From: Candidatus Aphodousia faecigallinarum
GTDB taxonomy: Bacteria > Pseudomonadota > Gammaproteobacteria > Burkholderiales > Burkholderiaceae_F
Reading direction: 5' to 3'
DNA: 64,000 nt
NCBI GenBank assembly: GCA_018714755.1
Contig: DVMY01000085.1
Coordinates: 12,222 to 76,221, forward strand
Every line of letters begins with the position of its first letter. Position 1 is the stretch's first letter. The notes beneath the pieces were generated by a model, which made no database searches, was not told the DNA's origin, and saw only the letters and a list, made by a program, of their open reading frames with translations. Shown here piece after piece: positions 48,205-62,998 of the stretch. The translations under genes were made by a program, and so were the position numbers.

Positions 48205-50058
48205 TTAGCGGTGACCTGCGTAAAGTGTTTGAATTTGCGGCGCAAATTTCTCGTTCAAAGCTTTTCGCTTAAGTTTGAGCGTCGGGGTGATCAAACCATT
48301 TTCAATGGTCCAGGGTTCCAGCGTTAAATACACGTTCCTAGGAAGAGCATATTGAGGGAAGTCTTTCACCGCCGTCTTAATTCGTTTTAACACGGCGTTG
48401 CGTGTGACAGTGGCTAAAAGACTTTCTGGATCATTGGGGTCAAGATCAAGTGTAGACGCTAATTTGGACCACTCTTCCTTATTTAAGACCACTATGGTTG
48501 AAATGAAAGGACGGTTTTCTCCAATCACGAAGGCTTGATCAAAAAGAGGATCGATTTCAATCGCCAATTCCAAATCAGCGGGAGGAACTTTTTCGCCTGT
48601 ACTGGTGACGATGATTTCCTTAATGCGCCCGACAATTTTCAGGTACCCCTCGTGATCAAATTCTCCGACGTCACCCGTTTTAAGCCAACCGTCCTCCGTA
48701 AATACCTCTCTGGTAGCTTGGGGACGATTCCAATAGCCTTTCATCACCGACGGCGACTTCACTTGAATTTCATCATCGGCCCCTAAACGGACATTAGTTT
48801 GAGGCAGGGGCTTGCCGACGGTGTTGGGGTGATTATAGGTTAACGAATTTCCGGCTATGATCGGGCTAGACTCTGTCATCCCGTAACCTTGGATAATCGG
48901 CAAGCCTAAACCACAAAATGCTTTAGCCACTTTTGAATTTAAGGCGGCTCCGCCACTGATAGCGATACGAAGCTGTCCGCCAAACTGATTGAGCAACGTT
49001 TTAGAAACAAGCCGCTCAAGAATGGGCCAAACCACGGGATCCAAGATTGTCGCCCCGCCTCTTTGAGTGGGAAGGCCGTATTTTTTACTAAAACGCCTCC
49101 AGCCGACTTCAACCGCCCAATTAAACATAAACCGCACAAAACTTGATTCGCGGGCAAGCTTGGCTTGCACCTTTGCGAAAATACGTTCATAAATGCGGGG
49201 AACGGAAATAATCACATTGGGGCGAACGATGCGAAAGTCTTCGGCTAATTGTTGAATAGATCGAGTGTAAACGATGGTGCAACCCATGCCGAGAGCCAAG
49301 TAGTAGCCAGCCATACGTTCAAAAGTGTGGGAAACGGGTAAGAATGATAAAAACACATCGCCCGGTTTCGGACAAACGGTTTTCAATGTGTTTATGACAT
49401 TGCTGACAACGTTTTTGTGCGTGAGCATGACGCCTTTTGGCTTGCCTGTCGTGCCGGATGTGTAAACAATAGCAGCTAAATCATTTTCGTCGGGTGGGCT
49501 GGGCAATTCTGTTACCCCATGCCCAGTGGCTAGCCAAGATTCAAGATCCCAATGCTTGACGCCGTCTTGCCTGGATTGAGGCGAAGATTCTTCTGTGAAA
49601 ATGACATTTCTCAGATTGGGCATGACGGTGTGAGTAAGATAAATGGCATCCCAGCGACTTTGACGATTAGTGACAAGAACAGTAGCTTGGCTATCGGCAA
49701 TAATGAAGGCGCTGGAGCCTGCGGTATCGATGGCATGCAAAGGGACGGGAACATAGCCGTTAGCCAAAACAGCCTGGTCACAACAAACTGCATCGACGCC
49801 GTTGGGTAAAAGAATGGCAACTCGATCGCCACGCTTGAGGTTCATTTTGGCGAAAGCTCTGCGCCACTGTTGAACGCGTTCATTCAAATCTCTGTAGGAG
49901 ACTCGTTCCCATGTATTGGAGCGGCGATCAAATTGTCTGAGAGCTTCTGTGTGGGGTGCAATCTTTGCACGAGCAGGAACAAACTGATCTAAGGTTTTTA
50001 ACTGACTCAAAGCTTGGAAGCGGATTTCAGCAGAATCAATAGCCACGATCGACCTCAA
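48205..50058 (-). CDS. long-chain fatty acid--CoA ligase (AMP-dependent synthetase)
   Basis: YTSGTTGKPKG, QGYGMTES, GWLKTGD and LITPTLKLKR motifs; TTG start. Confidence 0.9.
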   Translation of the reverse strand: MRSIVAIDSAEIRFQALSQLKTLDQFVPARAKIAPHTEALRQFDRRSNTWERVSYRDLNERVQQWRRAFAKMNLKRGDRVAILLPNGVDAVCCDQAVLANGYVPVPLHAIDTAGSSAFIIADSQATVLVTNRQSRWDAIYLTHTVMPNLRNVIFTEESSPQSRQDGVKHWDLESWLATGHGVTELPSPPDENDLAAIVYTSGTTGKPKGVMLTHKNVVSNVINTLKTVCPKPGDVFLSFLPVSHTFERMAGYYLALGMGCTIVYTRSIQQLAEDFRIVRPNVIISVPRIYERIFAKVQAKLARESSFVRFMFNWAVEVGWRRFSKKYGLPTQRGGATILDPVVWPILERLVSKTLLNQFGGQLRIAISGGAALNSKVAKAFCGLGLPIIQGYGMTESSPIIAGNSLTYNHPNTVGKPLPQTNVRLGADDEIQVKSPSVMKGYWNRPQATREVFTEDGWLKTGDVGEFDHEGYLKIVGRIKEIIVTSTGEKVPPADLELAIEIDPLFDQAFVIGENRPFISTIVVLNKEEWSKLASTLDLDPNDPESLLATVTRNAVLKRIKTAVKDFPQYALPRNVYLTLEPWTIENGLITPTLKLKRKALNEKFAPQIQTLYAGHR

Positions 50059-50121: not shown

Positions 50122-50907
50122 TTAATTTTTAATTTTGTAGCCTTTTTTTAAAAACCAAACGCACGTGGAAAAAGCAAAGATACAGACCCCAAGTCCCCAT
50201 ATACAGGCAATAAAAGGATCGGTTTCGAAATAGCCTAAGAATCCTCCCCTGAATCCATCAATAAGGTAGTAAAGGGGGTTCAGTGTTGTTAATTCTCGCC
50301 AGGGGGACGGCAGCGTTTCACAGGAGTAAAAAATTCCGGATAAAAAAGTCATCGGCATAACAAAAAAAGTTTGAACAACCCCCATTTGTTCATAACGATC
50401 GGACCAAATGGCTGTTATGAGTCCTAATGAGGCCATAACAAAAGCACCCAATAGAGAAAAAATAAGAATCCAGGTCATGCAATTAAATGACGGAGTGACC
50501 CAAATAGTGGTTCCCAACCAAACACAAAACCCTACGATAAGTCCTCTTAATACCGAAGAAAGAATATAGGCGGTTGCAATCATGGAGTTGCTCAGTGGTG
50601 TTACCAATAGAAAAGTTAAGGTTCCAGATATTTTTGACTGCACGAAAGATGAAGAACTATTAGCAAAGGCATTTTGTAAAACGGCCATCATAACTAAACC
50701 GGGCACCAAAAAATTCGAGTATGGGATTGATGAAGTGGAGACAACTTGATTCTGAAGAGCTGCTCCAAAAATAATTAAATAAAGCAAAGAGGACAGAACA
50801 GGCGCGGCAATAGTGTGAAAAGCCACTTTTTTGAATCGAATGATTTCTTTTCTCAGTAAAGTGAAAAAAGCGTTTCGTGCGCAAAAGGTTTGGGTATGGC
50901 TAAACAT
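50122..50907 (-). CDS. ABC-2 type transporter permease (YadH-like)
   Basis: KEIIRF...TIAAPV...YLIIFG, FLVPGLVMM..LQNAFANSSSS, FLSGIFYS and NPLYYLIDGFR; start moved to MFSHTQ. Confidence 0.87.
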   Translation of the reverse strand: MFSHTQTFCARNAFFTLLRKEIIRFKKVAFHTIAAPVLSSLLYLIIFGAALQNQVVSTSSIPYSNFLVPGLVMMAVLQNAFANSSSSFVQSKISGTLTFLLVTPLSNSMIATAYILSSVLRGLIVGFCVWLGTTIWVTPSFNCMTWILIFSLLGAFVMASLGLITAIWSDRYEQMGVVQTFFVMPMTFLSGIFYSCETLPSPWRELTTLNPLYYLIDGFRGGFLGYFETDPFIACIWGLGVCIFAFSTCVWFLKKGYKIKN

Positions 50908-50915
50908 ATTCGTAC

Positions 50916-51815
50916 TTAATGGGTAACTTTTATGAAAAGATCTTCTAGGCTGGCACGGGAAGTTTGCAGATTTTCTAATTCGCATCGGCAGGCAAACAAC
51001 GTATTGAGAATGTTTGTCAGATCCTTCGCATCAGAGAATTCAAGAATGTATTTTTGAGCTTCAGAGCTAAGAACTCGGGAAAGTAGTCCGTCTGGGATTA
51101 TTCCACTGACTAGGCGAAAGCTCAGAGTATTTTGTTTCACAGAATTGAGCAAACTGTCCGTGGTTCCCGCGGCGACGATTTGGCCGTGATTAATGATGGC
51201 AATTTCTGAGCATAAATTTTGTGCTTCTTCCAAATAATGAGTGGTTAATACAATGGTGTGGCCATTTTGATGAAGTTTTTCAATGAAATTCCACAATTGA
51301 TTTCGAAGTTGAACATCAACGCCAGCGGTCGGTTCGTCAAGCACAATGATCGGAGGCTTATGCACTAGCGCCTGTGCGACCATGACTCTTCGTTTCATGC
51401 CGCCAGAAAGCAACCTGCAAGGAGTCTGCATTTTTTCACTCAATCCCAATCCATCAATAATTTCTTCAATCCAAGCATCATTATTTTTCAGCCCGTAATA
51501 ACCGCTTTGAAAGGCGAGCATTTCATAAACGGACAAAAAGGGGTCGCAGAGAATCTCTTGAGCGACTACACCGATACTCATAAGGGCATCGGAAGTGTCT
51601 CGGGCAATGTCAAATCCTGCAATGCGGATCCCGCCTGATGTTGGTTTGACCAGTCCAACCATAGAGTTAATGAGGGTGGATTTCCCGGCACCATTTGGAC
51701 CAAGAAGACCAAAAAAAGCCCCCTCCCGAATTTGAAGAGAAATGCCTTTGAGCGCTTCAAAACCGTTTGCATAGGTTTTGTGCAAATTTTCAATGTCAAT
51801 AATGTTCGAATTCAT
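50916..51815 (-). CDS. ABC transporter ATP-binding protein (YadG-like)
   Basis: GPNGAGKST, LSGGMKRR, LDEPTAGVD and LTTHYLEEA motifs; alternative TTG start at 51824. Confidence 0.9.
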   Translation of the reverse strand: MNSNIIDIENLHKTYANGFEALKGISLQIREGAFFGLLGPNGAGKSTLINSMVGLVKPTSGGIRIAGFDIARDTSDALMSIGVVAQEILCDPFLSVYEMLAFQSGYYGLKNNDAWIEEIIDGLGLSEKMQTPCRLLSGGMKRRVMVAQALVHKPPIIVLDEPTAGVDVQLRNQLWNFIEKLHQNGHTIVLTTHYLEEAQNLCSEIAIINHGQIVAAGTTDSLLNSVKQNTLSFRLVSGIIPDGLLSRVLSSEAQKYILEFSDAKDLTNILNTLFACRCELENLQTSRASLEDLFIKVTH

Positions 51816-51820
51816 ACCGA

Positions 51821-52546
51821 TCAATCAATTTCATATCGAACAGGAATTTCTAAAGTGGCCGCACGGCGTACCTGAGTTTTCAAGCCTTTCAAATGCTGAG
51901 CGGCCGACAGTGTTGCACGCCTAAAAAGTGCGTTCCCGCCTTCCTTGAGACGGTAATCGCTCACAGAACCCGAAGCATCAATGGAGACAATTAAAAGAGT
52001 TTCCCCTTCAAGCCCAATATCTCGGGCACGTTTTGGGTAACGTTTGTGTTGCTCAATGACTTGAACGATTTGTAAGAGTGCGTTGGATATTTCATTGTTA
52101 CTTTGACCAGCACCGTTTGTGCTAGGAGCTTGTTTGGCGCTTCCAACACTTTTTTTCGTCGCTTTTTGCGGCGGTGTAACCGCTTTCTTTTCTGATTCCG
52201 GTTTTGTCTTTAGTTGTCGTTCCAACGGTTTAGTCTCTTCTTTAACTTGTTTGACGATGGGCTTAGGCTCTTGCAAGTGTATTTCCCAGGCGCTTGAAGG
52301 GACGGTCATAATGATCCAGCGAGGTTCTTTTTTGAGTGGCATCGCAACGTTTTCGACCGGTTTGATCGGATTTTGATCAATGCTCGCTTTTTGGGGCATG
52401 GCCAGTGGATCGGATAATTGAAAAAACGCTAAAGCAAACAAGCTTGTTGCAACAACGCTCGTCAATAATCTCGCTGTAAAGGTTGCCTGACGGTCATCCG
52501 GTCTCGGCTTGAAGCTGTTATAAGCGATGTGTTTTACGGGTTTCAT
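51821..52546 (-). CDS. tonB: energy transducer TonB
   Basis: Single TM, Lys/Pro-rich linker, C-terminal YPKRARDIGLEG...IDASGSV TonB_C domain. Confidence 0.85.
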   Translation of the reverse strand: MKPVKHIAYNSFKPRPDDRQATFTARLLTSVVATSLFALAFFQLSDPLAMPQKASIDQNPIKPVENVAMPLKKEPRWIIMTVPSSAWEIHLQEPKPIVKQVKEETKPLERQLKTKPESEKKAVTPPQKATKKSVGSAKQAPSTNGAGQSNNEISNALLQIVQVIEQHKRYPKRARDIGLEGETLLIVSIDASGSVSDYRLKEGGNALFRRATLSAAQHLKGLKTQVRRAATLEIPVRYEID

Positions 52547-52947
52547 TGTTTGGCCTGAGTGCTGATTACAAAGCGCCCTTCATTTTTTTCTTTTGCTAAA
52601 TCCACAAGCGGAACAAACGAGCTAAAAGAGGCTTTCCCATCCATATGAATATTCAAAATTGTGTTTGGGGAGGCTATAAGAGCTCCTTCAACCTCAGTAA
52701 GAGTGGTCGGACGATTATTCATCCAGTATGAACCGTCAGCCCGTACATTGACGCTAATTTGCCGATCAGCCCGTTTTACTTCGGCAGTTTCACTTTCTGG
52801 CAGGATAATTTCCAAGACTGGTTTCGAGAAACTCATCGTGACAACAAAGAAAATGATCAGCATGAAAAGACAGTCGATAAGAGGTGTCAGATCAATTTGC
52901 GGATCATCATCAATTGGTGAGAGACCGGGCGGAATGAAAATACTCAT
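52543..52947 (-). CDS. exbD: biopolymer transporter ExbD
   Basis: IDLTPLIDCLFMLIIFFVVT motif. Confidence 0.92.
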   Translation of the reverse strand: MSIFIPPGLSPIDDDPQIDLTPLIDCLFMLIIFFVVTMSFSKPVLEIILPESETAEVKRADRQISVNVRADGSYWMNNRPTTLTEVEGALIASPNTILNIHMDGKASFSSFVPLVDLAKEKNEGRFVISTQAKQ

Positions 52948-52950
52948 TTT

Positions 52951-53595
52951 TTATTCCTTCTCCTCATCGTTAATCGCATGGGGATTATTTTTCCCACGAA
53001 GGCGATTCATAATTTCAAGTGCGCGATAGCTATGTTCTACGGCTTCAATATGAAAACCCCTGAATTTCAGCATTAAGCCGTAATAGACCATTAACACGGG
53101 AATGGCGATGCAAAGTCCCATGACAGTTGTGATTAATGCCTGCCAGATGCCGGCTGCTAAAAGTTCGGTCGATGGCACCTCAGTAAAAGACAATGTTTTG
53201 AAAACTTCCACCATGCCGAAAACAGTGCCTAGAAGTCCAAGTAAGGGAGAAATAACACTGATGAGTTTCAACCAAACCAGACCATTGCTGACACGTTTGA
53301 AATTACGATGGAAAAGGTAGGCTACTTCTGCCCGAATGTCATCGGAGTGAGAGCCGTGAGTCGCCACAATGTCGTAGATGATTCGTATGAGGGGATTGGC
53401 CGTTCCCGGATCAATATTTCTCAGGCAACGATCTTTACCGCTTTCAAGATCAAGAAAGTCACGTCGAAAGTTTTTCCACACACGGTTTAAATAGGCAACG
53501 AGCCAGACCGATACGTACAAGGCATAAAGGGCTACGAAGATAAGCGCAACACCGGCAGGTCCTATCAATGTATAAAGAGATTCTATGTTTTCCAT
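52951..53595 (-). CDS. exbB: MotA/TolQ/ExbB proton channel protein
   Basis: SPLLGLLGTVFGM and GIWQALITTVMGL motifs. Confidence 0.9.
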   Translation of the reverse strand: MENIESLYTLIGPAGVALIFVALYALYVSVWLVAYLNRVWKNFRRDFLDLESGKDRCLRNIDPGTANPLIRIIYDIVATHGSHSDDIRAEVAYLFHRNFKRVSNGLVWLKLISVISPLLGLLGTVFGMVEVFKTLSFTEVPSTELLAAGIWQALITTVMGLCIAIPVLMVYYGLMLKFRGFHIEAVEHSYRALEIMNRLRGKNNPHAINDEEKE

Positions 53596-53606
53596 AATGG
53601 TTGTCC

Positions 53607-54116
53607 TCAGGCTAAGAATTCACGGAAAGTTTCGGTAGCGGCTCGATAATCTTCCTCGTTGGGATGCTTTGCAGCTTCTTCTCTGCGGGCAACCGATTCC
53701 GGCGTTTCTTGATAGCCAGGCATTTTTTTCATTTGTTCAATCAACACTGGATTAATTTTTCCTTGGCACAGAAATGTGGCTGCTAAGAGATTGTTGCGAT
53801 CATTGCCAACAATCGTGCTGCACTGACGGCTAAACCAGTCTTTTGCTCGTTCACTTTGTGGATTGCCACCCATCGTTGCATAGATTGCCAGGGACTTCCC
53901 TCTGATATAGGGAACGAGTTGCGCCAAATCGGGAGGGAGACCGCCTTTGTCGCACCAGAAGCCGATAATGATGCGGCTATACTTGTCTAAAAGTTCGGAG
54001 CACTTCAGTACATCGGTTGTTCTTCTGAGAGCCGTTTGAGGATAAGCTTCGTTGAGGGCTTGTCCTACTTTCCAAGTGTTTCCTGTAATAGAGCTGACAA
54101 TAATGAGTGCGGACAT
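53607..54116 (-). CDS. flavodoxin family protein (Flavodoxin_3 type, HmuF-like)
   Basis: SSITGNT FMN loop, GFWCDKG, FLCQGKI and HPNEED; located inside the heme operon. Confidence 0.82.
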   Translation of the reverse strand: MSALIIVSSITGNTWKVGQALNEAYPQTALRRTTDVLKCSELLDKYSRIIIGFWCDKGGLPPDLAQLVPYIRGKSLAIYATMGGNPQSERAKDWFSRQCSTIVGNDRNNLLAATFLCQGKINPVLIEQMKKMPGYQETPESVARREEAAKHPNEEDYRAATETFREFLA

Positions 54117-54135
54117 AACAAAGATTCCTTATCGA

Positions 54136-54633
54136 TTAGCAGAATTGCGTTTTAGCTTTTAAGAAGCCTTCTTTAACAGATTCAATCAACCGATGATTTT
54201 CTCGTCCCACGTAAATACAAAAGTGAAGTTTTTGGTCTTTACCGAAAAAAGCGACGTAATGGGATTCACGTCCCATAAATGGCATTGAAATAAAAGCAAC
54301 AGTCTCTAAAGAATCCGGATTGATGTGGCCTCCGATCACAGCGTCTTTAGCCAAAATGTTGTAATAGCCCATGGCACGCTTGCCGGCCGAGAGCTTTGAT
54401 TGGATTTCAAAGACATGACCTTCATGGATAATAAAAAGAGTGACTTTCTCCCACTGACTCATAGTAAACCAAAGGTCGTCAAACATATTGATGTTTTTGA
54501 TAAATGAACAATTTTCAGTCGGTAAAGCCCGAGCTGCTTCTAAGTCAGAGCAACCAAGTTCTCGAGCCATCAACCCTAATGTAACAGGCTTTTTAGCGTT
54601 CATTAGTTCTGAGATTTTTTCTTGTCTATTCAT
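54136..54633 (-). CDS. hutX: cytosolic heme carrier HutX/ChuX
   Basis: W.KV..II...G.VFE...GYYNI...GHI...FMG.ES...F.IYVGR signature. Confidence 0.9.
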   Translation of the reverse strand: MNRQEKISELMNAKKPVTLGLMARELGCSDLEAARALPTENCSFIKNINMFDDLWFTMSQWEKVTLFIIHEGHVFEIQSKLSAGKRAMGYYNILAKDAVIGGHINPDSLETVAFISMPFMGRESHYVAFFGKDQKLHFCIYVGRENHRLIESVKEGFLKAKTQFC

Positions 54634-56116
54634 TGAGATTCTCCGTATCAGATAATTTTTTCAGAGTGTTCATGCGCAAGGCCTGATCAGCGCACAACGC
54701 TAAAAGTTCTAAATCGTGTGTAATCAGTAAAACGGCTTTGCCTAGGCTTGCTTGTTCTTTCAAAGCATTTGCCACGCGTTGCATGTTTTCCCCATCTAAA
54801 CCGCTTGTGGGCTCATCTAGGATCAAAATATTCGGGTTTTTCGCTAGTGCGCAGGCAATCACCAATCGTTGTTTTTGCCCGCCTGAGAGTGATTGAGGAT
54901 GACGATTGGCGAGTTCTTCAAGTGAAAAAGTCTTCAATAACCCATTAATAGTTTCTTCTGCAGACTGTTGCTGATTTGCAGCAAACAGGCAAGCGTTGAT
55001 TTCTTCACGGACACTTCGCATTTGCAATTGATGGTCTGCATTTTGAAGTACGAGTCCTGTATGTTTTAGTAGTTGATCAGCAGAGGTTTGTCGGCCATTG
55101 AGGTAGAGAATCCCAGTCCCGACATTAAGCCCTGTAATCAACCTAGCTAAGGTAGTTTTGCCGCTACCATTTTCTCCGATAAGTGCGGTTATACCGGGGC
55201 CCACTTCAAAATGAATATTTTTCAGCAGTATGTTGCTTGCGTCCTTTGCCGTACCTTTGAAGAGCGTTTTCAATTTAGCAAGTTTGGAATGATGGTTGGC
55301 CTTTTCATAGTCAAAGGTCAAATCGGCAGTTTTTAAAATTGGAGACGGCACATTGCTTTCAGGTAAGGTGTTACGTACGTCTTCAACGTGTGCTTCGCGT
55401 AATCCGTAGCGCTTTCTCAAATTTGCGTCTTCGAGAATTGAAAAAGCCCCCCTTTCTTTAATTTCTCCCTGCTGCATCACTATGACTTCATCGGCGACAT
55501 GATTTAACCAATGAAGTCGGTGATCAACAATTAAAACGGCAAAGCCTGCCTGTTTTAAACGAAGTAGTTCCTGGGCGAGCCGATCGGTAGCTTCCGGATC
55601 CAAGTTGGCCGACGGCTCGTCCAGGATTAAAGCCTGCGGTTCGGAGACTAAGATTTCCCCTAGTGCCACCCGTTGTTTTTGTCCTTCTGAAAGAGCGGAA
55701 ATCGAATGGGATAAAAGATTCTCGATTGATAATCTTTGCGCAACCTGTACTACACGTTCGTTGACGATGGTTGGGGTCATACCTGCAACCTTTAAAGCAA
55801 ACCCCATCTCATCTTTTACGTTTAGGGCAAAAAATTGATCTTCTGGATCCTGAAACAGCGTGCCGATCTTGTCTGAAATAGCTGAAACGGAACTCTTTTG
55901 CGTATCTTCTCCACAAATAGTTACTTGTCCGGATATTTCGCCTGCGTAGTAATGCGGACAAAGCCCATTGGCCAACCGCATTAAGGTTGTTTTGCCACAA
56001 CCGGAAACACCGGTAATCAATACAACCTGACCGGGAAGAACTTCCAAATTGATGTTCTTGACCGCCCATTTATCTTGAAACGGATAGCGATAAGATACTT
56101 TTTCGAATTGAATCAT
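54626..56116 (-). CDS. ECF transporter fused double ATPase (A-A')
   Basis: Two ABC domains (GVSGCGKTT...FQDPEDQFF...LSEGQKQR; GENGSGKTT...QNADHQL...LSGGQKQR); start after the CAGGAG SD. Confidence 0.88.
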   Translation of the reverse strand: MIQFEKVSYRYPFQDKWAVKNINLEVLPGQVVLITGVSGCGKTTLMRLANGLCPHYYAGEISGQVTICGEDTQKSSVSAISDKIGTLFQDPEDQFFALNVKDEMGFALKVAGMTPTIVNERVVQVAQRLSIENLLSHSISALSEGQKQRVALGEILVSEPQALILDEPSANLDPEATDRLAQELLRLKQAGFAVLIVDHRLHWLNHVADEVIVMQQGEIKERGAFSILEDANLRKRYGLREAHVEDVRNTLPESNVPSPILKTADLTFDYEKANHHSKLAKLKTLFKGTAKDASNILLKNIHFEVGPGITALIGENGSGKTTLARLITGLNVGTGILYLNGRQTSADQLLKHTGLVLQNADHQLQMRSVREEINACLFAANQQQSAEETINGLLKTFSLEELANRHPQSLSGGQKQRLVIACALAKNPNILILDEPTSGLDGENMQRVANALKEQASLGKAVLLITHDLELLALCADQALRMNTLKKLSDTENLNE

Positions 56117-56133
56117 TCCGATCGCTCCTGCTG

Positions 56134-56907
56134 TCAAGGCAATCTTGGGCTACCGGGGTTAATGCCCCAATCACCTAAATAAATTTCGGCCAACAAGGCA
56201 ACGGTCACGGTGCCGAGGCACAAAGTAAAGGCCAACCAATCCTTATGAGTGAAGCCTTGATCGGAAGAGAAAGCTTTCGCGGCGTGTTGTCCAAGTCCTC
56301 GATCAAGTCCTTTTAATTCAGCAGCAACGCCTAACGCTTCGCTGCTTTTCAAGGCTCTGAACAGAATCGGAGTAAAGACCAGTCTTGCGCACAACAGAGG
56401 GTGTGAGCACAGCATTTTGAAATTTAATTGCCAACCCCGGATTTTTAGGGTTTCCCAGACTTGAGAAACATCGTGCGCAAATGTTGGGATAAAACGGATC
56501 ATCACTGTTGAAGGCAGTGTGATGATAAATGGCAGTCGCAACTGTGAAAGAGCTGCCATGATGTTTTCAATCTTCGTTGAAAGCGCGAGCCCCATGACAA
56601 GATTCATCATGGTAAGGCCGCGTAGGAATGGAATGAGTAAATTTTGCACCGTCATCTCACCAAGGTCAGGAATAAAAAGCGTAATGATGGCCGTGCATCC
56701 GATAGCCAATCCCATCATGAGGGCCATCAACCCGTATAAAACAAGGACGAGAGTGACTCTTTTGATGAGCAGTGTCATGAGAAGGCTCATGACAAAGAGC
56801 ACTAATTGAGCGGCTAAACTCGAAAAGGCAACTGTTGTGATGGCACCAAGCAGCGTTAGCAGCAGCTTTGTGCGTGCATCAATTTGTGTCAGGACGGATG
56901 TACACAT
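56134..56907 (-). CDS. ECF transporter transmembrane (T) component, CbiQ/EcfT family
   Basis: DARTKL, AL..LRLP, IRFIPT, LKIRG and AAELKG coupling helices. Confidence 0.88.
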   Translation of the reverse strand: MCTSVLTQIDARTKLLLTLLGAITTVAFSSLAAQLVLFVMSLLMTLLIKRVTLVLVLYGLMALMMGLAIGCTAIITLFIPDLGEMTVQNLLIPFLRGLTMMNLVMGLALSTKIENIMAALSQLRLPFIITLPSTVMIRFIPTFAHDVSQVWETLKIRGWQLNFKMLCSHPLLCARLVFTPILFRALKSSEALGVAAELKGLDRGLGQHAAKAFSSDQGFTHKDWLAFTLCLGTVTVALLAEIYLGDWGINPGSPRLP

Positions 56908-56910
56908 GAT

Positions 56911-57453
56911 TTAACTCCTGACCATTCCAGCATGACGCAACTCTTGAAGCGTTCGGTAACCTGTGAAAAGTCCGAGCAAACAACCTGTATATCCGATGAA
57001 AATAATTGGCAAAACAGAGACCATCAAGGCTGGAGTTTCACGCATCATGAGGTAAGAGACGGCTATGGAAAAAATTTTGGTCCCTAGGTCGTAAACGGCA
57101 ACGCCGATGTATGTTGTCCAAGCGTGTTTAAAGCCACCAGTTAACAAAATGGCTAATTCCGCAGCGATCGCTCCGACGAGTGCCGCGGGCAACAGTGTGA
57201 TGCTTCCTCCCATTAAAAGAACGCTGACGATCATTGAGACGGCAGTAAATAACAGCAATGTTCCGCTTTTTTTTACCTTAGCTAGAAGGACAATTAAGAG
57301 TGTGGTGAATACAAGGTTTTTGAGCATGAGCGTGATCGGGTTCATGCCGCCGCCCGCCAAGGCTATTAGGAGAGAAGATAGCTTAATGGCGGCGGCAAAA
57401 ACACCGATCATGACGAGTTCTTGAGATTTCCAATAGGCCGTTTTAGCGGTCAT
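56911..57453 (-). CDS. ECF transporter S component, MptD/Trep_Strep family
   Basis: 180-aa hydrophobic protein with ELV.IGVFAA, LLAKVKKSG and C-terminal LRHAGMV; directly upstream of the T and ATPase genes. Confidence 0.8.
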   Translation of the reverse strand: MTAKTAYWKSQELVMIGVFAAAIKLSSLLIALAGGGMNPITLMLKNLVFTTLLIVLLAKVKKSGTLLLFTAVSMIVSVLLMGGSITLLPAALVGAIAAELAILLTGGFKHAWTTYIGVAVYDLGTKIFSIAVSYLMMRETPALMVSVLPIIFIGYTGCLLGLFTGYRTLQELRHAGMVRS

Positions 57454-57474
57454 TTTTATTACTCGTCAAAGTGG

Positions 57475-59532
57475 TTAGAACTTGGCATTCAACTTCACCG
57501 CAAAATGCCTGCCGGGTTCGTAAATAGATCCGTTATTTTGATATTTCTTGTCGGCAATGTTGTAAAAGCCAGCATCTAAGCTGTAAGCATTTTGAGGACC
57601 GAAGGACGCGCCGGCAGTAATATTGAATGTTGTCGCACCTCCATAGCTTGTGATCGTCGGTTTTTCAGCAACCATATCGTGGCTTTCAGTAGCGCTTTGA
57701 GAGATTGCGTACACATCGGCGCGCAGATTGGCGCCATCATATGAGGTGTTGTAGCGAACGCCGTAACGAGCGGTTACTTTGGGAGTGCCAGACTTGGTGG
57801 TTTTGATCCCGTTTTCCTGATACTCACGCCTCAAAAGCGTTAAGGTTGTGTACGGTTCGAAGTTACCTAATTTGACACTACCGTCCAATTCAAAACCAAT
57901 GGTTTTTGCTTTGCCAACATTGGTGTATTGCGAGATTTTATCGGTTATTGGAATCGTCGTAATATAGTCGTCAGCATCGCTATAAAAAAGAGCAGCATCT
58001 AATGTCAATGAACCATTTGAGTATCTCGAGCCGATTTCAAAGTTATTTGACGTTTCCGGCTTCAGATCGGGATTGGCTAAAGTTGAGCCGCCGCTCATCC
58101 CCATTGAAGTGTCAACATAAAGTTCTTGTAAGAGGGGGTAGCGGTAACCTTGGGACCAATTGGCGCGAAGCGATAGATTTTCAATTGGTTTCCAAGTGGC
58201 GCCCAAGTTGAAAACGACCTTTCCATCGCTGCCATCGTTTGAACTATCCTGACTAGATCCTTTTTTTACTTTGATGTCCATTTCGCTGTCAAACCATGTA
58301 TAGCGAAGACCATAATTCAAAGAAAGGGTGTCTAGAATGGAGCTATCCATGGTGGCAAAAACAGAATGACGTGTCATCTTTCCGTCAAAGTCTTTGCTTG
58401 ACATAGTGTCATTCATCAAACTGATATAGGTAGAACTATTGGCATCAAGATCGTCTAAACTGAATTCATAGCCGGTGATCAAATAATGATTTTCACCAAG
58501 TTGCCAATCTGTTTGAATAGACGCGCTCGTTGTATTAAGTTTGTTGTCAGCATTGTTTTCCACGTAATAAGGCACCACGATCTGTCCCGTTGGCATGGAA
58601 TCGGCAACATGGTTTGTCATGAGTTTATTGTTTTGTTCGTGGCCCACATCAATACGGACTCGCATTAAATTGTCTGTTAAGTTTTTGAATTCACCAAAAA
58701 TAGCTCCGCGAGTTCTTTTCCATTCCGGAACTTCTACCCAAAAATCATCCGGGTTGGCGTAGGTGATGCTTCCAGACGAAAAATCTAAATCATAGTGGCT
58801 TGCCGAAATACCAATTGTTTTATTGGCGTCAATATCATAGGAGAGGAAAAAGTCGGCTGATTTTGCGCTGAAATCTGTGTGTGGCATTTCACCGGCAGGC
58901 GTATCTAAATCATCGTGATCTTGAATGCCAGCCCCCAATCTATAATTCCAGCCCTCGTGAGATCCTGAAATAGAGAAGGAGGCGTCTTTGCCGTTTGATG
59001 AGGAGTTAAAGCCGGTGGAAACGGAGGCCTGCAGTGGTTTTTCGCCTCCTTTTTTCGTGATGATATTAATTGCGCCGCCAATGGCGTCCGAGCCATAAAG
59101 GACGGAGGCGGGACCACGAATAACTTCAATGCGCTCGACTTGAGAAGGATCTATCAGGAGAGGAACGCCGGACATTGATTTTTGTTCGGAAATTCTTTGC
59201 CCGTCTACCATTACAACAGTTCGGAAAGCATCTTCTCCACGGATTTTGATTCGATCAATGCCTTGTCCGCCATCATTGTTAACACGAATTCCGGGAACAT
59301 TGCTTTCTAGTAAATCGGCAATGGTTTGTGCGCCAGAACTCTGTTCAATATCTTCACTTGTGATGACGGAAACGCTCATGTTAACGTCAGCAAGTTGCTG
59401 CTCGACGCGAGAAGCGGTCACGACCACATCCTGAGCTTTGTAATTTTCAGCGGCTTGTGCGCTGACTAAGGGAAGAGACAGGGCCACTGCTACAGCAAGG
59501 CTTGTTTTCTTGAAAGAGAGACTTTTTGTCAT
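57475..59532 (-). CDS. TonB-dependent outer membrane receptor, probable heme/porphyrin
   Basis: Signal peptide, TonB box DVVVTA, plug RIEVIRGPASVLYGSDAIGGAINI, FRAP/NPNL-like YRYP...NPDLKPE, C-terminal Phe; hutW/hutX context. Confidence 0.88.
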   Translation of the reverse strand: MTKSLSFKKTSLAVAVALSLPLVSAQAAENYKAQDVVVTASRVEQQLADVNMSVSVITSEDIEQSSGAQTIADLLESNVPGIRVNNDGGQGIDRIKIRGEDAFRTVVMVDGQRISEQKSMSGVPLLIDPSQVERIEVIRGPASVLYGSDAIGGAINIITKKGGEKPLQASVSTGFNSSSNGKDASFSISGSHEGWNYRLGAGIQDHDDLDTPAGEMPHTDFSAKSADFFLSYDIDANKTIGISASHYDLDFSSGSITYANPDDFWVEVPEWKRTRGAIFGEFKNLTDNLMRVRIDVGHEQNNKLMTNHVADSMPTGQIVVPYYVENNADNKLNTTSASIQTDWQLGENHYLITGYEFSLDDLDANSSTYISLMNDTMSSKDFDGKMTRHSVFATMDSSILDTLSLNYGLRYTWFDSEMDIKVKKGSSQDSSNDGSDGKVVFNLGATWKPIENLSLRANWSQGYRYPLLQELYVDTSMGMSGGSTLANPDLKPETSNNFEIGSRYSNGSLTLDAALFYSDADDYITTIPITDKISQYTNVGKAKTIGFELDGSVKLGNFEPYTTLTLLRREYQENGIKTTKSGTPKVTARYGVRYNTSYDGANLRADVYAISQSATESHDMVAEKPTITSYGGATTFNITAGASFGPQNAYSLDAGFYNIADKKYQNNGSIYEPGRHFAVKLNAKF

Positions 59533-59584
59533 TTTAGTCGGTAGAGAAACAGTTATTAGCTTTTCTCTTTGGGTTAAAAAAACT

Positions 59585-60988
59585 TTACTTTGTTTGAGTC
59601 AGTCGTTTGCCTAACACATTGACCAACAATTGGGCCATCGTGGTGTGCCAGAATTGACCGGCAATGGTCTGTACCATCCAGTCTCCCACCGGAGTGATCA
59701 GCCCGGCTTGGGACCATTGATCAAAAACATCTTGGCTAAGCTTTTCAAGAGGTAGCGAATAAACGTCACTAAGGCTACGCATATTGATGCGCCCGAGTTC
59801 CATTTCAGAGGAGATCGTGCGTAGGGCATGCCAGTAGGCGCCGGGTGCACTGGCAAAAGCGATCGGCTTAATTCCAGCTTCAATCTTTTTGCTCCATTCG
59901 TCGTACTTTCGTTCGATCATGAAGCTATAGCCATTGAGTTTCCCTCCGGCTCCGCTACCAAATGCCAGGCAGTCTGCAGCGCTTTTGCCAAAGCGGTTGT
60001 AAATATTGCGTTCGCGGAAGGTTTGGCACCAGTGATTGTTGGACAAACGGCGCCACTGGGCTTTTGTTAAAAGGTCAACAGAAAGGGCAAACATCTCGCC
60101 TCGTTCTTCTTTATCAGCTCCTGCAGGCAGCTTGCCATTTGCGATGAATTTCCCAAGAGGGGACTTTTCGAAGACATTCAGTTGGTAACAGTCCACTCCG
60201 TCCAAAGGCAAAGAAATGGCGGTTTTGACGTCATCTTCCCAAACAGCCATATCTTGATAAGGAAAGCCATAGATTAAGTCACAAACAATGCTGGCTTGAT
60301 TGAACGAAGCGAGTTTTTCGATGGATCGAATCATGGAGTCTCGATCATCGACACGTCGCATGGTTTGACGCACTTGAGTGTTAAAAGTTTGTACGCCTAG
60401 GGAGACTCTGTTGACACCGGCTTTAAAGGCAGCCTCCATTTTTTCTTCGGGGAAATGGTGAATCCGTCCTTCAAGGGTGATTTCACAGTCGTTGGCTAGG
60501 GGAAGATAGGTTCTGACGGCTTTAATTAAACGATAAAGGTCATGGGGTTCAAGCGCAGTTGGTGTGCCGCCGCCAAAATAAACAGCATGGATTGGCTCAT
60601 GATTTTGAGCGGCCAAATCGCTCCAAAGTTGTAATTCTTTGATTAAAAGATCTGTGTAATGAAGGCTGGATTCTGGTTGTAGGGGATTTTGGTAAAAAAG
60701 GCAGTACAGACAACGCGTTTCGCAAAATGGGATATTGATATAAGCCAAACTTGTACCTTGTCGACTATTTCTGTATTGATTCTTAATTACAGGAATGGCC
60801 TCATCTCCAACGTAACTTTGTCCAGGAATATGAGTGTGAACGGTAGCTTTTCCACGGAAAGCGTTCTTTAGGGGATTATCAGTGATTTCTGCTTCAAAGT
60901 TAACCATGTCCTCAAGAGCAGAGACCTGGCTTCCCATCATGGAACGTTGGGAAGATTCAAAGGATTTATGAAGGCTTTTTAACTGCAT
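59585..60988 (-). CDS. hutW: anaerobic heme-degrading radical SAM methyltransferase ChuW/HutW
   Basis: IPFCETRCLYC, AVYFGGGTPTAL, LPLANDCEITLEGR, HW...RERNIYN and AGQFW motifs; with hutX and a TonB-dependent receptor. Confidence 0.9.
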   Translation of the reverse strand: MQLKSLHKSFESSQRSMMGSQVSALEDMVNFEAEITDNPLKNAFRGKATVHTHIPGQSYVGDEAIPVIKNQYRNSRQGTSLAYINIPFCETRCLYCLFYQNPLQPESSLHYTDLLIKELQLWSDLAAQNHEPIHAVYFGGGTPTALEPHDLYRLIKAVRTYLPLANDCEITLEGRIHHFPEEKMEAAFKAGVNRVSLGVQTFNTQVRQTMRRVDDRDSMIRSIEKLASFNQASIVCDLIYGFPYQDMAVWEDDVKTAISLPLDGVDCYQLNVFEKSPLGKFIANGKLPAGADKEERGEMFALSVDLLTKAQWRRLSNNHWCQTFRERNIYNRFGKSAADCLAFGSGAGGKLNGYSFMIERKYDEWSKKIEAGIKPIAFASAPGAYWHALRTISSEMELGRINMRSLSDVYSLPLEKLSQDVFDQWSQAGLITPVGDWMVQTIAGQFWHTTMAQLLVNVLGKRLTQTK

Positions 60989-61031
60989 TACCAGCCCTTA
61001 TCAAAAAGATTAGACTAATAAAATCATTATT

Positions 61032-61051
61032 AGAAATGATAATCATTATCA
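61032..61051. promoter_or_regulatory. Fur box
   Basis: TGATAAT-C-ATTATCA (61037-61051) is a perfect 7-1-7 Fur consensus; 16/19 match to GATAATGATAATCATTATC; about 50 nt upstream of hutW. Confidence 0.9.
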
Positions 61052-61077
61052 ATGGAAGTCGAATAATAAGGATCTAT

Positions 61078-61091
61078 TTGATAATTTTCAA
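61078..61091. promoter_or_regulatory. FNR-like binding site
   Basis: TTGAT-AATT-TTCAA is a 9/10 match to TTGAT-N4-ATCAA, upstream of the Fur box relative to hutW. Confidence 0.5.
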
Positions 61092-61165: not shown

Positions 61166-62998
61166 TTATTTAGTGCTTTCGGCAAGGGCTCTTTTATTTT
61201 CTAGCTCTTCCCAACGTTGGTAGTCCTGATTAATTTGCGTTTCTAAGTTTTGAAGGAACTCCGTTTGTTCTTTGATCTCTTGAGCATTATGGCTCGTGTA
61301 ATAATCTGGAGCATTCATTGACGAAATTAACTCGTCTCGCTCGGCTTCCAACTGCATCAGGTGTTCAGGCAAGGTCTCCAATTCTTTATTTTCTTTGTAG
61401 CTTAATTTGATTTTGGTCTGTTTAGGCTTTTTTGGTACAACTTTGTCAGCGATCTCAGCCTTTTTAACAGCTGACTCTACTTTCGGTTTGTAGTGTTGCC
61501 AATCTGAGTAGCCGCCAACATATTCTCGCCAAAGGCCATTGCCTTCGGGAGCCAAAACTTCCGTTACAACATTGTCCAGAAATCTTCGATCATGACTGAC
61601 AAGAATCAGAGTGCCGGGATAGTTTTGGAGCGTTTGCTCAAGTAACTCCAAGGAATCAATATCCAGATCGTTAGTCGGTTCGTCTAACACAAGCAAATTG
61701 GCTGGCAGAGCGAATAATCGAGCAAGTAGCAGACGGTTACGTTCGCCTCCGGATAAATTGGAAACCGGAACATTGGCTCTTCTTGGCGGAAAGAGAAAAT
61801 CGCCAAGGTAGGCCATGATGTGTTTCTTTGAGCCGCCCACTTCAATCCACTCACTGCCCGGTGAAATGGTTTCAGCCACGGTTTTATTGGGATCTAATTG
61901 GGCTCGCAGTTGGTCAAAATAAGCGATTTGCAGGTTGGTTCCCAGTTTGATTGTTCCGCTATCAGGCTGGCGTTTCCCCAAAATAAGAGAAATCAAAGTG
62001 CTTTTACCAACACCGTTGTGACCGACTAAACCTAAACGGTCTCCTCTCAATAACCTGAAATTCAAATCTTTGACAATGATTTTATCGCCAAAAGCCAAGC
62101 TGACCTTTTCCAACTCAGCCACAATCTTGCCGCTTTTCATGCCAGCATCAATATTGAGATTGATTTGTCCCAAACGATCTCGTCTGGCCGCACGATCTTC
62201 ACGCAAGCGCTCCAGTCGCCTTACCCGACCTTCGTTTCTGGTTCTTCGCGCTTCAATTCCTTTTCGTATCCAGACTTCTTCCTGAGCCCAAAACTTATCA
62301 AATTTTCTGCGAGCAATATCTTCAGCCGCCAGTTCCTGCTCTTTTCGGTTTTCATACGCTTCGAAATTTCCGGGGTAACTTCTGAGAACCCCTCGATCCA
62401 ACTCAATAATGCGGGTGCTGACAGAGTCCAAGAACGCTCTGTCATGAGTGATCACCATCAAAGATTTAGAGCCTCGATATTCTGATTTAATTAACTCTTC
62501 CAGAATCAAAATGGCATCAATATCCAAATGATTGGTCGGTTCGTCCAAAAGAAGGAGATCTTTGTTTTGGGTAAAAGCGAGTGCTAAAGCGGCGCGTTTT
62601 TTCTCTCCTCCGCTGGCTCCCTGCAGAGGTCTGTCACCGTCGAGTTCAAAACGATGTAAGTACTCGTCAAGACGCGCGATTTGCCGCCACTTTACCTGTT
62701 CATCGTTTTCTTCGTTAAGTTTTCCACGCAAAATGAGTGATTCTCTGAGTGTATGGGCCTCAGGTAAAAAAGGTTCCTGCTCGACGTATGCAATGCCCAA
62801 TCCATCCATAACCGTTTTAGAACCGTCATCAAGTTTGTCTGCTCCGGCGATAATGCGTAAAAGAGAACTTTTCCCCGTGCCGTTACGTCCGATAACACCA
62901 ATCCTCTCACCGTCCATTACCGTGAGATTGGCGTGGTCCAAAAGAGGCTGATCGCCAAAAGCCAGCTCAGCATCCTGCAGAGTTAATAAAGTGGTCAT
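61166..62998 (-). CDS. uup: ABC-F family ATPase Uup
   Basis: Two ABC domains, linker EEVWIRKGIEARRTRNEGRVRRL, C-terminal KLSYKE..EL..LP coiled coil. Confidence 0.92.
   Translation of the reverse strand: MTTLLTLQDAELAFGDQPLLDHANLTVMDGERIGVIGRNGTGKSSLLRIIAGADKLDDGSKTVMDGLGIAYVEQEPFLPEAHTLRESLILRGKLNEENDEQVKWRQIARLDEYLHRFELDGDRPLQGASGGEKKRAALALAFTQNKDLLLLDEPTNHLDIDAILILEELIKSEYRGSKSLMVITHDRAFLDSVSTRIIELDRGVLRSYPGNFEAYENRKEQELAAEDIARRKFDKFWAQEEVWIRKGIEARRTRNEGRVRRLERLREDRAARRDRLGQINLNIDAGMKSGKIVAELEKVSLAFGDKIIVKDLNFRLLRGDRLGLVGHNGVGKSTLISLILGKRQPDSGTIKLGTNLQIAYFDQLRAQLDPNKTVAETISPGSEWIEVGGSKKHIMAYLGDFLFPPRRANVPVSNLSGGERNRLLLARLFALPANLLVLDEPTNDLDIDSLELLEQTLQNYPGTLILVSHDRRFLDNVVTEVLAPEGNGLWREYVGGYSDWQHYKPKVESAVKKAEIADKVVPKKPKQTKIKLSYKENKELETLPEHLMQLEAERDELISSMNAPDYYTSHNAQEIKEQTEFLQNLETQINQDYQRWEELENKRALAESTK

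Follow-up and report, generated by a model that had tools for sequence, protein, structure and literature searches.

Heme uptake in Gram-negative bacteria usually depends, behind the outer-membrane receptor, on a periplasmic binding protein and a type-II ATP-binding cassette (ABC) permease. A ten-gene operon present in a 64,000-nucleotide stretch of DNA from Candidatus Aphodousia faecigallinarum (the window) raises the question of how heme reaches the cytoplasm when the genes located between those of a heme-type TonB-dependent receptor and of a cytoplasmic heme carrier encode an energy-coupling factor (ECF) transporter. Our answer is that the operon probably specifies iron-repressed acquisition of heme and its oxygen-free degradation in an anaerobic gut diderm, the importer behind the TonB-dependent receptor being of the ECF type. 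Gene identities, the fold of the S component of the transporter, the conservation of the cassette, and the enrichment of Fur boxes in its promoters are shown here.

Gene content of the operon

The source genome is a metagenome-assembled genome of 1.5 Mb (108 contigs, 76% complete). Gene families were assigned with Pfam and NCBIfam models and their cutoffs. A first-pass annotation, made from the letters of the window, had described one minus-strand operon of ten genes. All ten were present where it had placed them, and each could be assigned to a family:

51821-60988, minus strand: operon of ten genes in the order HutW, TonB-dependent receptor, S component, EcfT, EcfAA', HutX, flavodoxin, ExbB, ExbD, TonB
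59585-60988, minus strand: hutW/chuW, radical S-adenosylmethionine (SAM) methyltransferase (anaerobilin synthase), TIGR04107
57475-59532, minus strand: TonB-dependent outer-membrane receptor of the heme type, Plug and barrel domains (Pfam)
56911-57453, minus strand: ECF S component of 180 amino acids, putative heme-binding membrane subunit, PF09605
56134-56907, minus strand: EcfT transmembrane coupling subunit, PF02361 (CbiQ), 46 bits for a cutoff of 25
54626-56137, minus strand: fused EcfA-EcfA' ATPase, two ABC_tran domains
54136-54633, minus strand: HutX/ChuX cytoplasmic heme carrier, TIGR04108
53607-54116, minus strand: HmuF/FldH-like flavodoxin, Flavodoxin_3, 105 bits
52951-53595, minus strand: ExbB, MotA_ExbB, 82 bits
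52543-52947, minus strand: ExbD, ExbD domain, 81.8 bits
51821-52546, minus strand: TonB, TonB_C, 37.5 bits for a cutoff of 24.6

Intergenic spacing ranged from -8 to +52 nucleotides across the ten genes, and the block formed by the S, EcfT, and EcfAA' genes was inserted between the receptor gene and hutX with gaps of at most 21 nucleotides. Peripla_BP_2, FecCD, HemS/ChuS, and PNPOx-type domains were detected in none of the 12 open reading frames in or adjoining the operon, and neither ChuY nor HutZ was found among its genes. Thus, the earlier statement that the locus is devoid of a binding protein, an ABC permease, and ChuY, HutZ, or ChuS holds true within the operon.

The genes for heme degradation were identified at the equivalog level. 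HutW scored 490 bits with TIGR04107 (cutoff 400) and harbors the radical SAM CX3CX2C motif in the form CETRCLYC (residues 89-96). HutX scored 122.5 bits with TIGR04108 (cutoff 110), and its GH motif (His103) was invariant in 18 orthologues. The sole significant relative of the flavodoxin in the PDB was 8G64 (E 7e-9 over residues 1-158), which is the heme-bound form of FldH from Fusobacterium nucleatum, a paralogue of HmuF (PMC10404700). HmuF is reported to deliver heme to HmuW, the anaerobilin synthase, and to act as a reductase of anaerobilin (PMC10404700). The TGNT loop of the operon flavodoxin, which we read as the loop binding the phosphate of flavin mononucleotide, was invariant across orthologues. 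In the phmmer alignment, the FldH segment containing the heme ligand His134 was located opposite a gap in the operon flavodoxin; this histidine is also missing from some HmuF homologues (PMC10404700).

HutX and the flavodoxin were found as a single polypeptide in other genomes, as a HutX-flavodoxin fusion in Mucispirillum and other Deferribacterales and as the reverse flavodoxin-HutX fusion in an environmental contig:

L069:12752-13966, L041:12708-13772, and L094:8152-9192: HutX/flavodoxin fusion genes, in two opposite domain orders

The two orders look like independent events, and two independent fusions argue that HutX and the flavodoxin act together. Structure prediction of a complex between the two proteins returned a score of 0.00, that is no answer, and weighs neither way.

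The ECF module, its conservation, and its probable iron control

The S component had been labeled MptD-type in the first-pass annotation. This label survived only as a statement of distant kinship: PF09605 (MptD / Trep_Strep) was passed narrowly (32.7 bits for a cutoff of 28.7), but TIGR02185 gave no match, and relatives of the protein scored 23-29 bits with that model for a cutoff of 76.45. The resemblance to MptD/Trep_Strep consists of the same length class and the same six-helix S-component fold. The subfamily formed a compact group apart from MptD/Trep_Strep, with GGGMNP and ELRHAG motifs of its own.

An AlphaFold2 model of the S component, based on 27 homologues, displayed six transmembrane helices with a mean predicted local distance difference test (pLDDT) score of 90.7. 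Exhaustive structural comparison with 48,161 PDB representatives returned ECF S components for all of the 14 top matches, with Z scores of 7.8-11.8 over 148-169 of the 180 residues (up to 11.8 over 167 residues). The proteins matched were YkoE, ThiT, RibU, PanT, BioY, CbiM, NikM, and FolT. As modeled, the protein has the fold of an ECF S component. Searching the PDB by sequence returned nothing meaningful, and Foldseek returned a single marginal match to the model (5edl, E 9e-3).

According to the positive-inside rule, residues 33-39, 82-87, and 137-140 of the S component form the periplasmic loops. The GGGMNP motif was nearly invariant in the first of these loops, which presumably corresponds to the lid that covers the pocket in S components of known structure, and a conserved Arg-Glu pair was present in the third. 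The methionine of the motif could ligate iron and the arginine could meet a propionate, an arrangement that would be compatible with heme binding.

The remaining subunits displayed the group I organisation, the S gene being followed by that of EcfT after 3 nucleotides and the latter overlapping the EcfAA' gene by 4 nucleotides. This organisation was present in all related loci that were long enough. EcfT contains KIRG and ELKG motifs, which presumably occupy the positions of the two Ala-Arg-Gly coupling motifs of this subunit. EcfAA' scored 305 bits with ECF_ATPase_1 and 295 bits with ECF_ATPase_2, both just under the cutoffs, and contains Walker A motifs at residues 43 and 321 and Walker B motifs at residues 169 and 437.

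The S subfamily was small: of 1.84 billion representatives, it accounted for 96 clusters (50% identity). When species-representative genomes were scanned with an alignment of 11 S sequences, 206 relatives were identified. The best 80 were examined with 10-kb flanks, the gene order being read by tblastn with the proteins of the window. The order HutW, receptor, S, EcfT, EcfAA', HutX, flavodoxin was found in essentially every locus of sufficient length, and in about 70 of the 80 loci, in three phyla. ExbB, ExbD, and TonB usually came next after the flavodoxin, and the order of the ten genes was identical in Desulfovibrio intestinalis. The carriers belonged to the Sutterellaceae (Aphodousia, Sutterella, Parasutterella, Duodenibacillus, Turicimonas, Dakarella, and Mesosutterella), the Desulfovibrionaceae (Bilophila wadsworthia, Desulfovibrio, and Mailhella), and the Deferribacterota (Mucispirillum schaedleri). 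This survey of co-occurrence indicates that the hybrid of TonB-dependent receptor, ECF module, and HutW noticed in the window is an architecture kept in these three groups. The S component was detected in 22 of 100 sampled genomes of the GTDB family to which the window belongs, and all carriers had small genomes (1.6-2.9 Mb). The closest named relatives of the source genome were Candidatus Aphodousia faecavium and uncultured Sutterella bins, whose S components had 90-94% identity to that of the window; the source organism is accordingly a gut bacterium of the Sutterellaceae with a small genome.

In a tree of concatenated HutW, receptor, and EcfAA' sequences, the Sutterellaceae were separated from a side composed of the Desulfovibrionaceae and the Deferribacterota. 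This split by host family points to mostly vertical inheritance within families, with a few old transfers across phyla. Rampant transfer between phyla was rejected since the tree largely tracks host families. The existence of carriers in the Firmicutes was also rejected, as bins labeled Acutalibacteraceae and Oscillospiraceae were nested deep in the Sutterella clade and encoded a TonB receptor. Three bins harboring the full cassette, all nested in this clade (L029, L030, and L038, labeled Acutalibacteraceae, Oscillospiraceae, and Rhodocyclaceae), are probably mislabeled or misbinned.

Divergent loci revealed which genes stay together. Each of the S-subfamily contexts examined included receptor or heme genes, and S relatives of 34-35% identity still adjoined a TonB receptor and HutX. 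One distant locus contained an AraC-type regulator, the receptor, S, EcfT, EcfAA', HutX, ExbB, and ExbD, without HutW or the flavodoxin. A second distant locus contained the receptor, a radical SAM enzyme, S, EcfAA', and a flavodoxin-HutX fusion. Four more distant S relatives were located on contigs of less than 2 kb, on which the context was not visible. As read from these neighborhoods, the constant core is composed of the receptor, the ECF module, and HutX. The constancy of this core is the best argument for a substrate shared by the receptor and the ECF module, namely heme.

Iron control was assessed from the region upstream of hutW:

61015-61091, minus strand: promoter region with a Fur box, from sequence reading and promoter-like sites

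The Fur box preceding the operon had been described as perfect. A strong box, GATAATGATTATCATTTCT, was indeed present at 61050-61032 on the minus strand, but it matched 16 of the 19 consensus positions only. It overlaps a promoter-like site at 61052-61023, sits just downstream of another at 61091-61063, and is followed by additional AT-rich Fur-like hexamers. Fur-like 19-mers with at most 4 mismatches were found within the 260 nucleotides preceding hutW in 26 of 70 orthologous loci; for random segments taken from these loci, the count was 10 of 2000 (0.5%). This enrichment in orthologous promoters indicates that iron control is apparently a conserved property, and the cassette appears to be under control of the Fur type.

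Regulator genes associated with the cassette differed between lineages. In some Desulfovibrio loci, a DtxR-type repressor adjoins the cassette instead; in D. intestinalis, it is a divergent regulator of this type (Fe_dep_repress) located after the cassette (L002:16391-16918). A PocR/AraC regulator precedes the cassette in a distant variant (L092). The cassette is therefore apparently wired to different regulators in different lineages.

The substrate of the receptor and the ECF module

Heme is proposed as the substrate of the S component because the ECF genes have that of a heme-type receptor on one side and hutX on the other, in an operon that also encodes HutW. The first-pass annotation had put forward a hybrid diderm pathway in which the receptor delivers heme to a membrane S component. 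The architecture and its conservation were borne out, and the delivery of heme to the S component is deduced from gene context.

The receptor has a signal peptide and a TonB box (DVVVTAS). Its best NCBIfam model was TonB-hemin (TIGR01785, 242.9 bits), ahead of models for siderophore and B12 receptors. Heme receptors such as HemR and ShuA contain a FRAP box and an NPNL box separated by a stretch that includes a conserved histidine, in addition to a histidine in the plug. In the receptor of the window, YRYP and NPDL occupy the places of these two boxes. There was no histidine between the boxes in any of 74 receptor orthologues; Met477, located in this interval, was invariant in all 74, and Met120, in the plug, was kept in 73 of them. 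We equated Met120 and Met477 with the axial-histidine positions of ShuA on the basis of motifs, not of an alignment to ShuA.

Several observations weigh against heme, or against its import by the ECF module. The receptor did not reach the TIGR01785 cutoff of 316.85, and both of its presumed axial-histidine positions are occupied by methionine. In sequence, the S component did not significantly match any S component that has been characterised, and its putative ligand is assigned from context. FecCD-type importers, which could carry heme, are encoded elsewhere in the genomes of carriers: exactly one FecCD locus, unlinked to the cassette, was present in each of three congeners that are 97-99% complete (G052, G008, and G033), and five other carriers had one or two Peripla_BP_2/FecCD-type systems with no assigned specificity. 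Peripla_BP_2 and FecCD were not found in the source genome itself, an absence that is weak evidence given its completeness of 76%. Finally, evidence for transcription of the operon was rejected, as three runs labeled RNA-Seq probably contained DNA, and short metatranscriptome contigs from a relative of 90-97% identity covered parts of the operon without constituting proof of transcription.

The unlinked importers raise the main alternative, in which heme enters by this route and the ECF module imports another compound required by the pathway, such as a flavin for the flavodoxin or a metal. In the closest congener, G052, the FecCD importer is composed of a binding protein, a permease, and an ATPase. 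The ATPase scored best on the heme ABC ATPase model (171 bits), below the cutoff of 261, and no protein of this importer reached the cutoff of any family model. The context-based assignment of the ligand of the S component also leaves room for this explanation. We nonetheless consider it improbable since the importer of G052 is located among housekeeping genes (rsmB, ispH, tsaD, and dnaG) with no receptor or heme gene nearby, whereas about 70 loci in three phyla have the ECF genes inserted between those for the heme receptor and HutX. Moreover, the association of the ECF genes with the receptor and HutX persists even without HutW and the flavodoxin, which argues for a substrate common to the ECF module and the receptor.

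The methionines of the receptor may reflect ligation of heme by this residue or a somewhat different ligand. In the latter case, the substrate could be another tetrapyrrole, a metalloporphyrin or a corrinoid, on which the HutW-like enzyme would act. The score of the receptor below the heme-receptor cutoff and its lack of axial histidines are in line with this explanation, BtuB models also match its plug domain, and diverse substrates are attributed to class C radical SAM methyltransferases (PMC10114669). Other components of the operon point to heme, making another tetrapyrrole quite improbable: HutW (490 bits) and HutX (122 bits) both exceed their equivalog cutoffs, the only PDB relative of the flavodoxin binds heme, and regulation appears to be of the Fur type, i.e. 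by iron. No B12 riboswitch was noticed in the leader, which was read without a dedicated Rfam scan.

If heme is the substrate, its use may differ between hosts. Two congeners that are 99% complete and harbor the cassette, G008 and G033, yielded no match to ALAD (PF00490) or to ferrochelatase (PF00762). Some carriers of the cassette may thus be heme auxotrophs, and the finding of carriers without these two enzymes suggests that the system may also supply heme as a cofactor in some hosts. It is possible, if doubtful, that delivery of intact heme as a cofactor is the main role of the system and that HutW detoxifies the excess. Against such a main role, ferrochelatase is present in the source genome, both ALAD and ferrochelatase are present in the closest congener, and Fur-type boxes point to control by iron. 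This alternative concerns the purpose of the system, not transport, and is compatible with ECF-mediated import of heme behind the TonB-dependent receptor.

A more specific version of ECF-mediated heme import can be put forward tentatively. In a diderm route independent of a binding protein, methionine rather than histidine would ligate the iron at each membrane step, through Met120 and Met477 in the receptor and through the GGGMNP lid in the S component. Methionine would be a suitable ligand for ferrous heme under the anoxic conditions of the gut. If this were true, an ECF importer would for the first time be shown to act after a TonB-dependent heme receptor, and its S components would form a fourth, independent heme-specific family.

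Proposed pathway, known systems, and flanking genes

In the pathway that we propose, low iron would release Fur from the promoter. The receptor would bind heme, and the ExbB-ExbD-TonB set encoded by the operon would power its entry into the periplasm. No soluble binding protein would intervene, the membrane-embedded S component taking heme at the periplasmic face. Docking of the S component on EcfT and the activity of the fused EcfAA' ATPase would then drive the release of heme into the cytoplasm. HutX and the HmuF/FldH-like flavodoxin, working as a unit, would accept heme and hand it to HutW for radical SAM ring opening, which would free the iron. The flavodoxin would provide electrons and probably reduce anaerobilin, thereby replacing ChuY or HutZ. 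Within this scheme, heme as the ECF substrate, the absence of a periplasmic carrier, and the order of the cytoplasmic hand-off are what we infer.

The individual parts of the system are of known kinds. In E. coli O157:H7 (chuA-chuTWXYUV) and Vibrio cholerae (hutWXZ and hutBCD), heme import depends on a permease of the FecCD type served by a periplasmic binding protein, and ChuY or HutZ is present as well. These systems and the operon of the window have in common ChuW/HutW and ChuX/HutX encoded beside a heme receptor, as well as iron control. In contrast, the binding protein, the FecCD permease, and ChuY or HutZ are all missing from the present operon. ChuX, ChuS, and HutX are mentioned as members of the heme operons of E. 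coli and V. cholerae in the study of HmuF (PMC10404700).

The hmuTRUVWF operon of F. nucleatum (PMC10404700; PDB 8G64), also from an anaerobic diderm, shares with the present operon a TonB receptor, an anaerobilin synthase, and a flavodoxin of the HmuF/FldH family, the latter occupying in both operons the place of ChuY or HutZ. The two systems differ in the importer, which is composed of the HmuT binding protein and the HmuUV type-II ABC importer in F. nucleatum and of the ECF S, EcfT, and EcfAA' subunits in the window. The present operon differs, in addition, by the presence of HutX and of its own ExbB-ExbD-TonB set. The operons described in the HmuF paper have importers of the HmuTUV type, and ECF transporters are not mentioned there (PMC10404700).

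The first-pass annotation had stated that heme ECF importers are described in Gram-positive bacteria, and the literature accordingly provided three systems only: LhaSTA of Staphylococcus lugdunensis (PMC7299338), SiaFGH of Streptococcus pyogenes, and the system of Lactobacillus sakei (bioRxiv 10.1101/864751). Like the module of the window, all belong to group I of the ECF transporters, having S, T, and A subunits of their own encoded in an iron-regulated heme locus, and, as we propose for the present operon, no soluble binding protein intervenes in the uptake of heme by their S component. Unlike the present module, which has fused A subunits and lies behind an outer membrane and a TonB receptor, the Gram-positive transporters operate in monoderm hosts, in which heme reaches the S component from surface or host hemoproteins. 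Known heme S components share little sequence similarity, and Gram-negative homologues are absent from the discussion of the LhaSTA paper (PMC7299338). No description of a heme ECF importer in a diderm was found in open-access papers and preprints.

As far as comparative genomics and fold prediction reach, they support the reading of the module as an importer of heme that operates behind a TonB-dependent receptor, with degradation of the HutW type coupled to it. Comparative genomics has linked TonB-dependent receptors with the ECF systems NikMNQO and CbiMNQO, for nickel and cobalt. In the light of this link, a receptor feeding an ECF importer would not be without precedent.

The distribution of the cassette suggests that common gut anaerobes, including Sutterella, Parasutterella, B. 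wadsworthia, and M. schaedleri, use an ECF transporter instead of the binding protein and type-II permease of other Gram-negative bacteria. If this is the case, both the range of ECF substrates and the range of cell-envelope settings in which these transporters operate would be widened. A mechanistic question is also raised, namely how a membrane-embedded S component collects a hydrophobic and toxic ligand released into the periplasm. The cassette is in addition a candidate explanation of how these little-studied members of the gut flora, which are associated with disease, compete for heme from the host and the diet, and several of its carriers are cultured.

The operon had been thought to end at tonB. 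Its ten genes stand as described, but this end probably does not, since a pair of genes for an ABC-2 exporter follows on the same strand:

50916-51815, minus strand: DrrA-like ABC ATPase, probable eleventh gene of the operon, ABC_tran and DrrA C-terminal domains
50122-50985, minus strand: ABC-2 (YadH/DrrB-like) permease, probable twelfth gene of the operon, ABC2_membrane, 117 bits

The likely in-frame ATG of the ATPase gene is located 5 nucleotides past the tonB stop codon, and the operon probably continues through the pair to position 50122. The permease also matched PRK15066 (196 bits), below the cutoff of 225. A hairpin at 51741-51719 was rejected as a terminator, as it lies within the Walker A coding region of the ATPase gene. 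In many Sutterellaceae loci the pair accompanied the cassette, either following it in the same orientation or preceding it divergently; it was linked to the cassette in no Desulfovibrionaceae locus among those examined. Its role may be to export surplus heme or a product of heme breakdown.

The genes flanking this extended operon are apparently unrelated to the heme system. An ABC-F type ATPase is encoded upstream (61166-62998) and an AMP-binding enzyme resembling acyl-CoA synthetases downstream (48205-50058).

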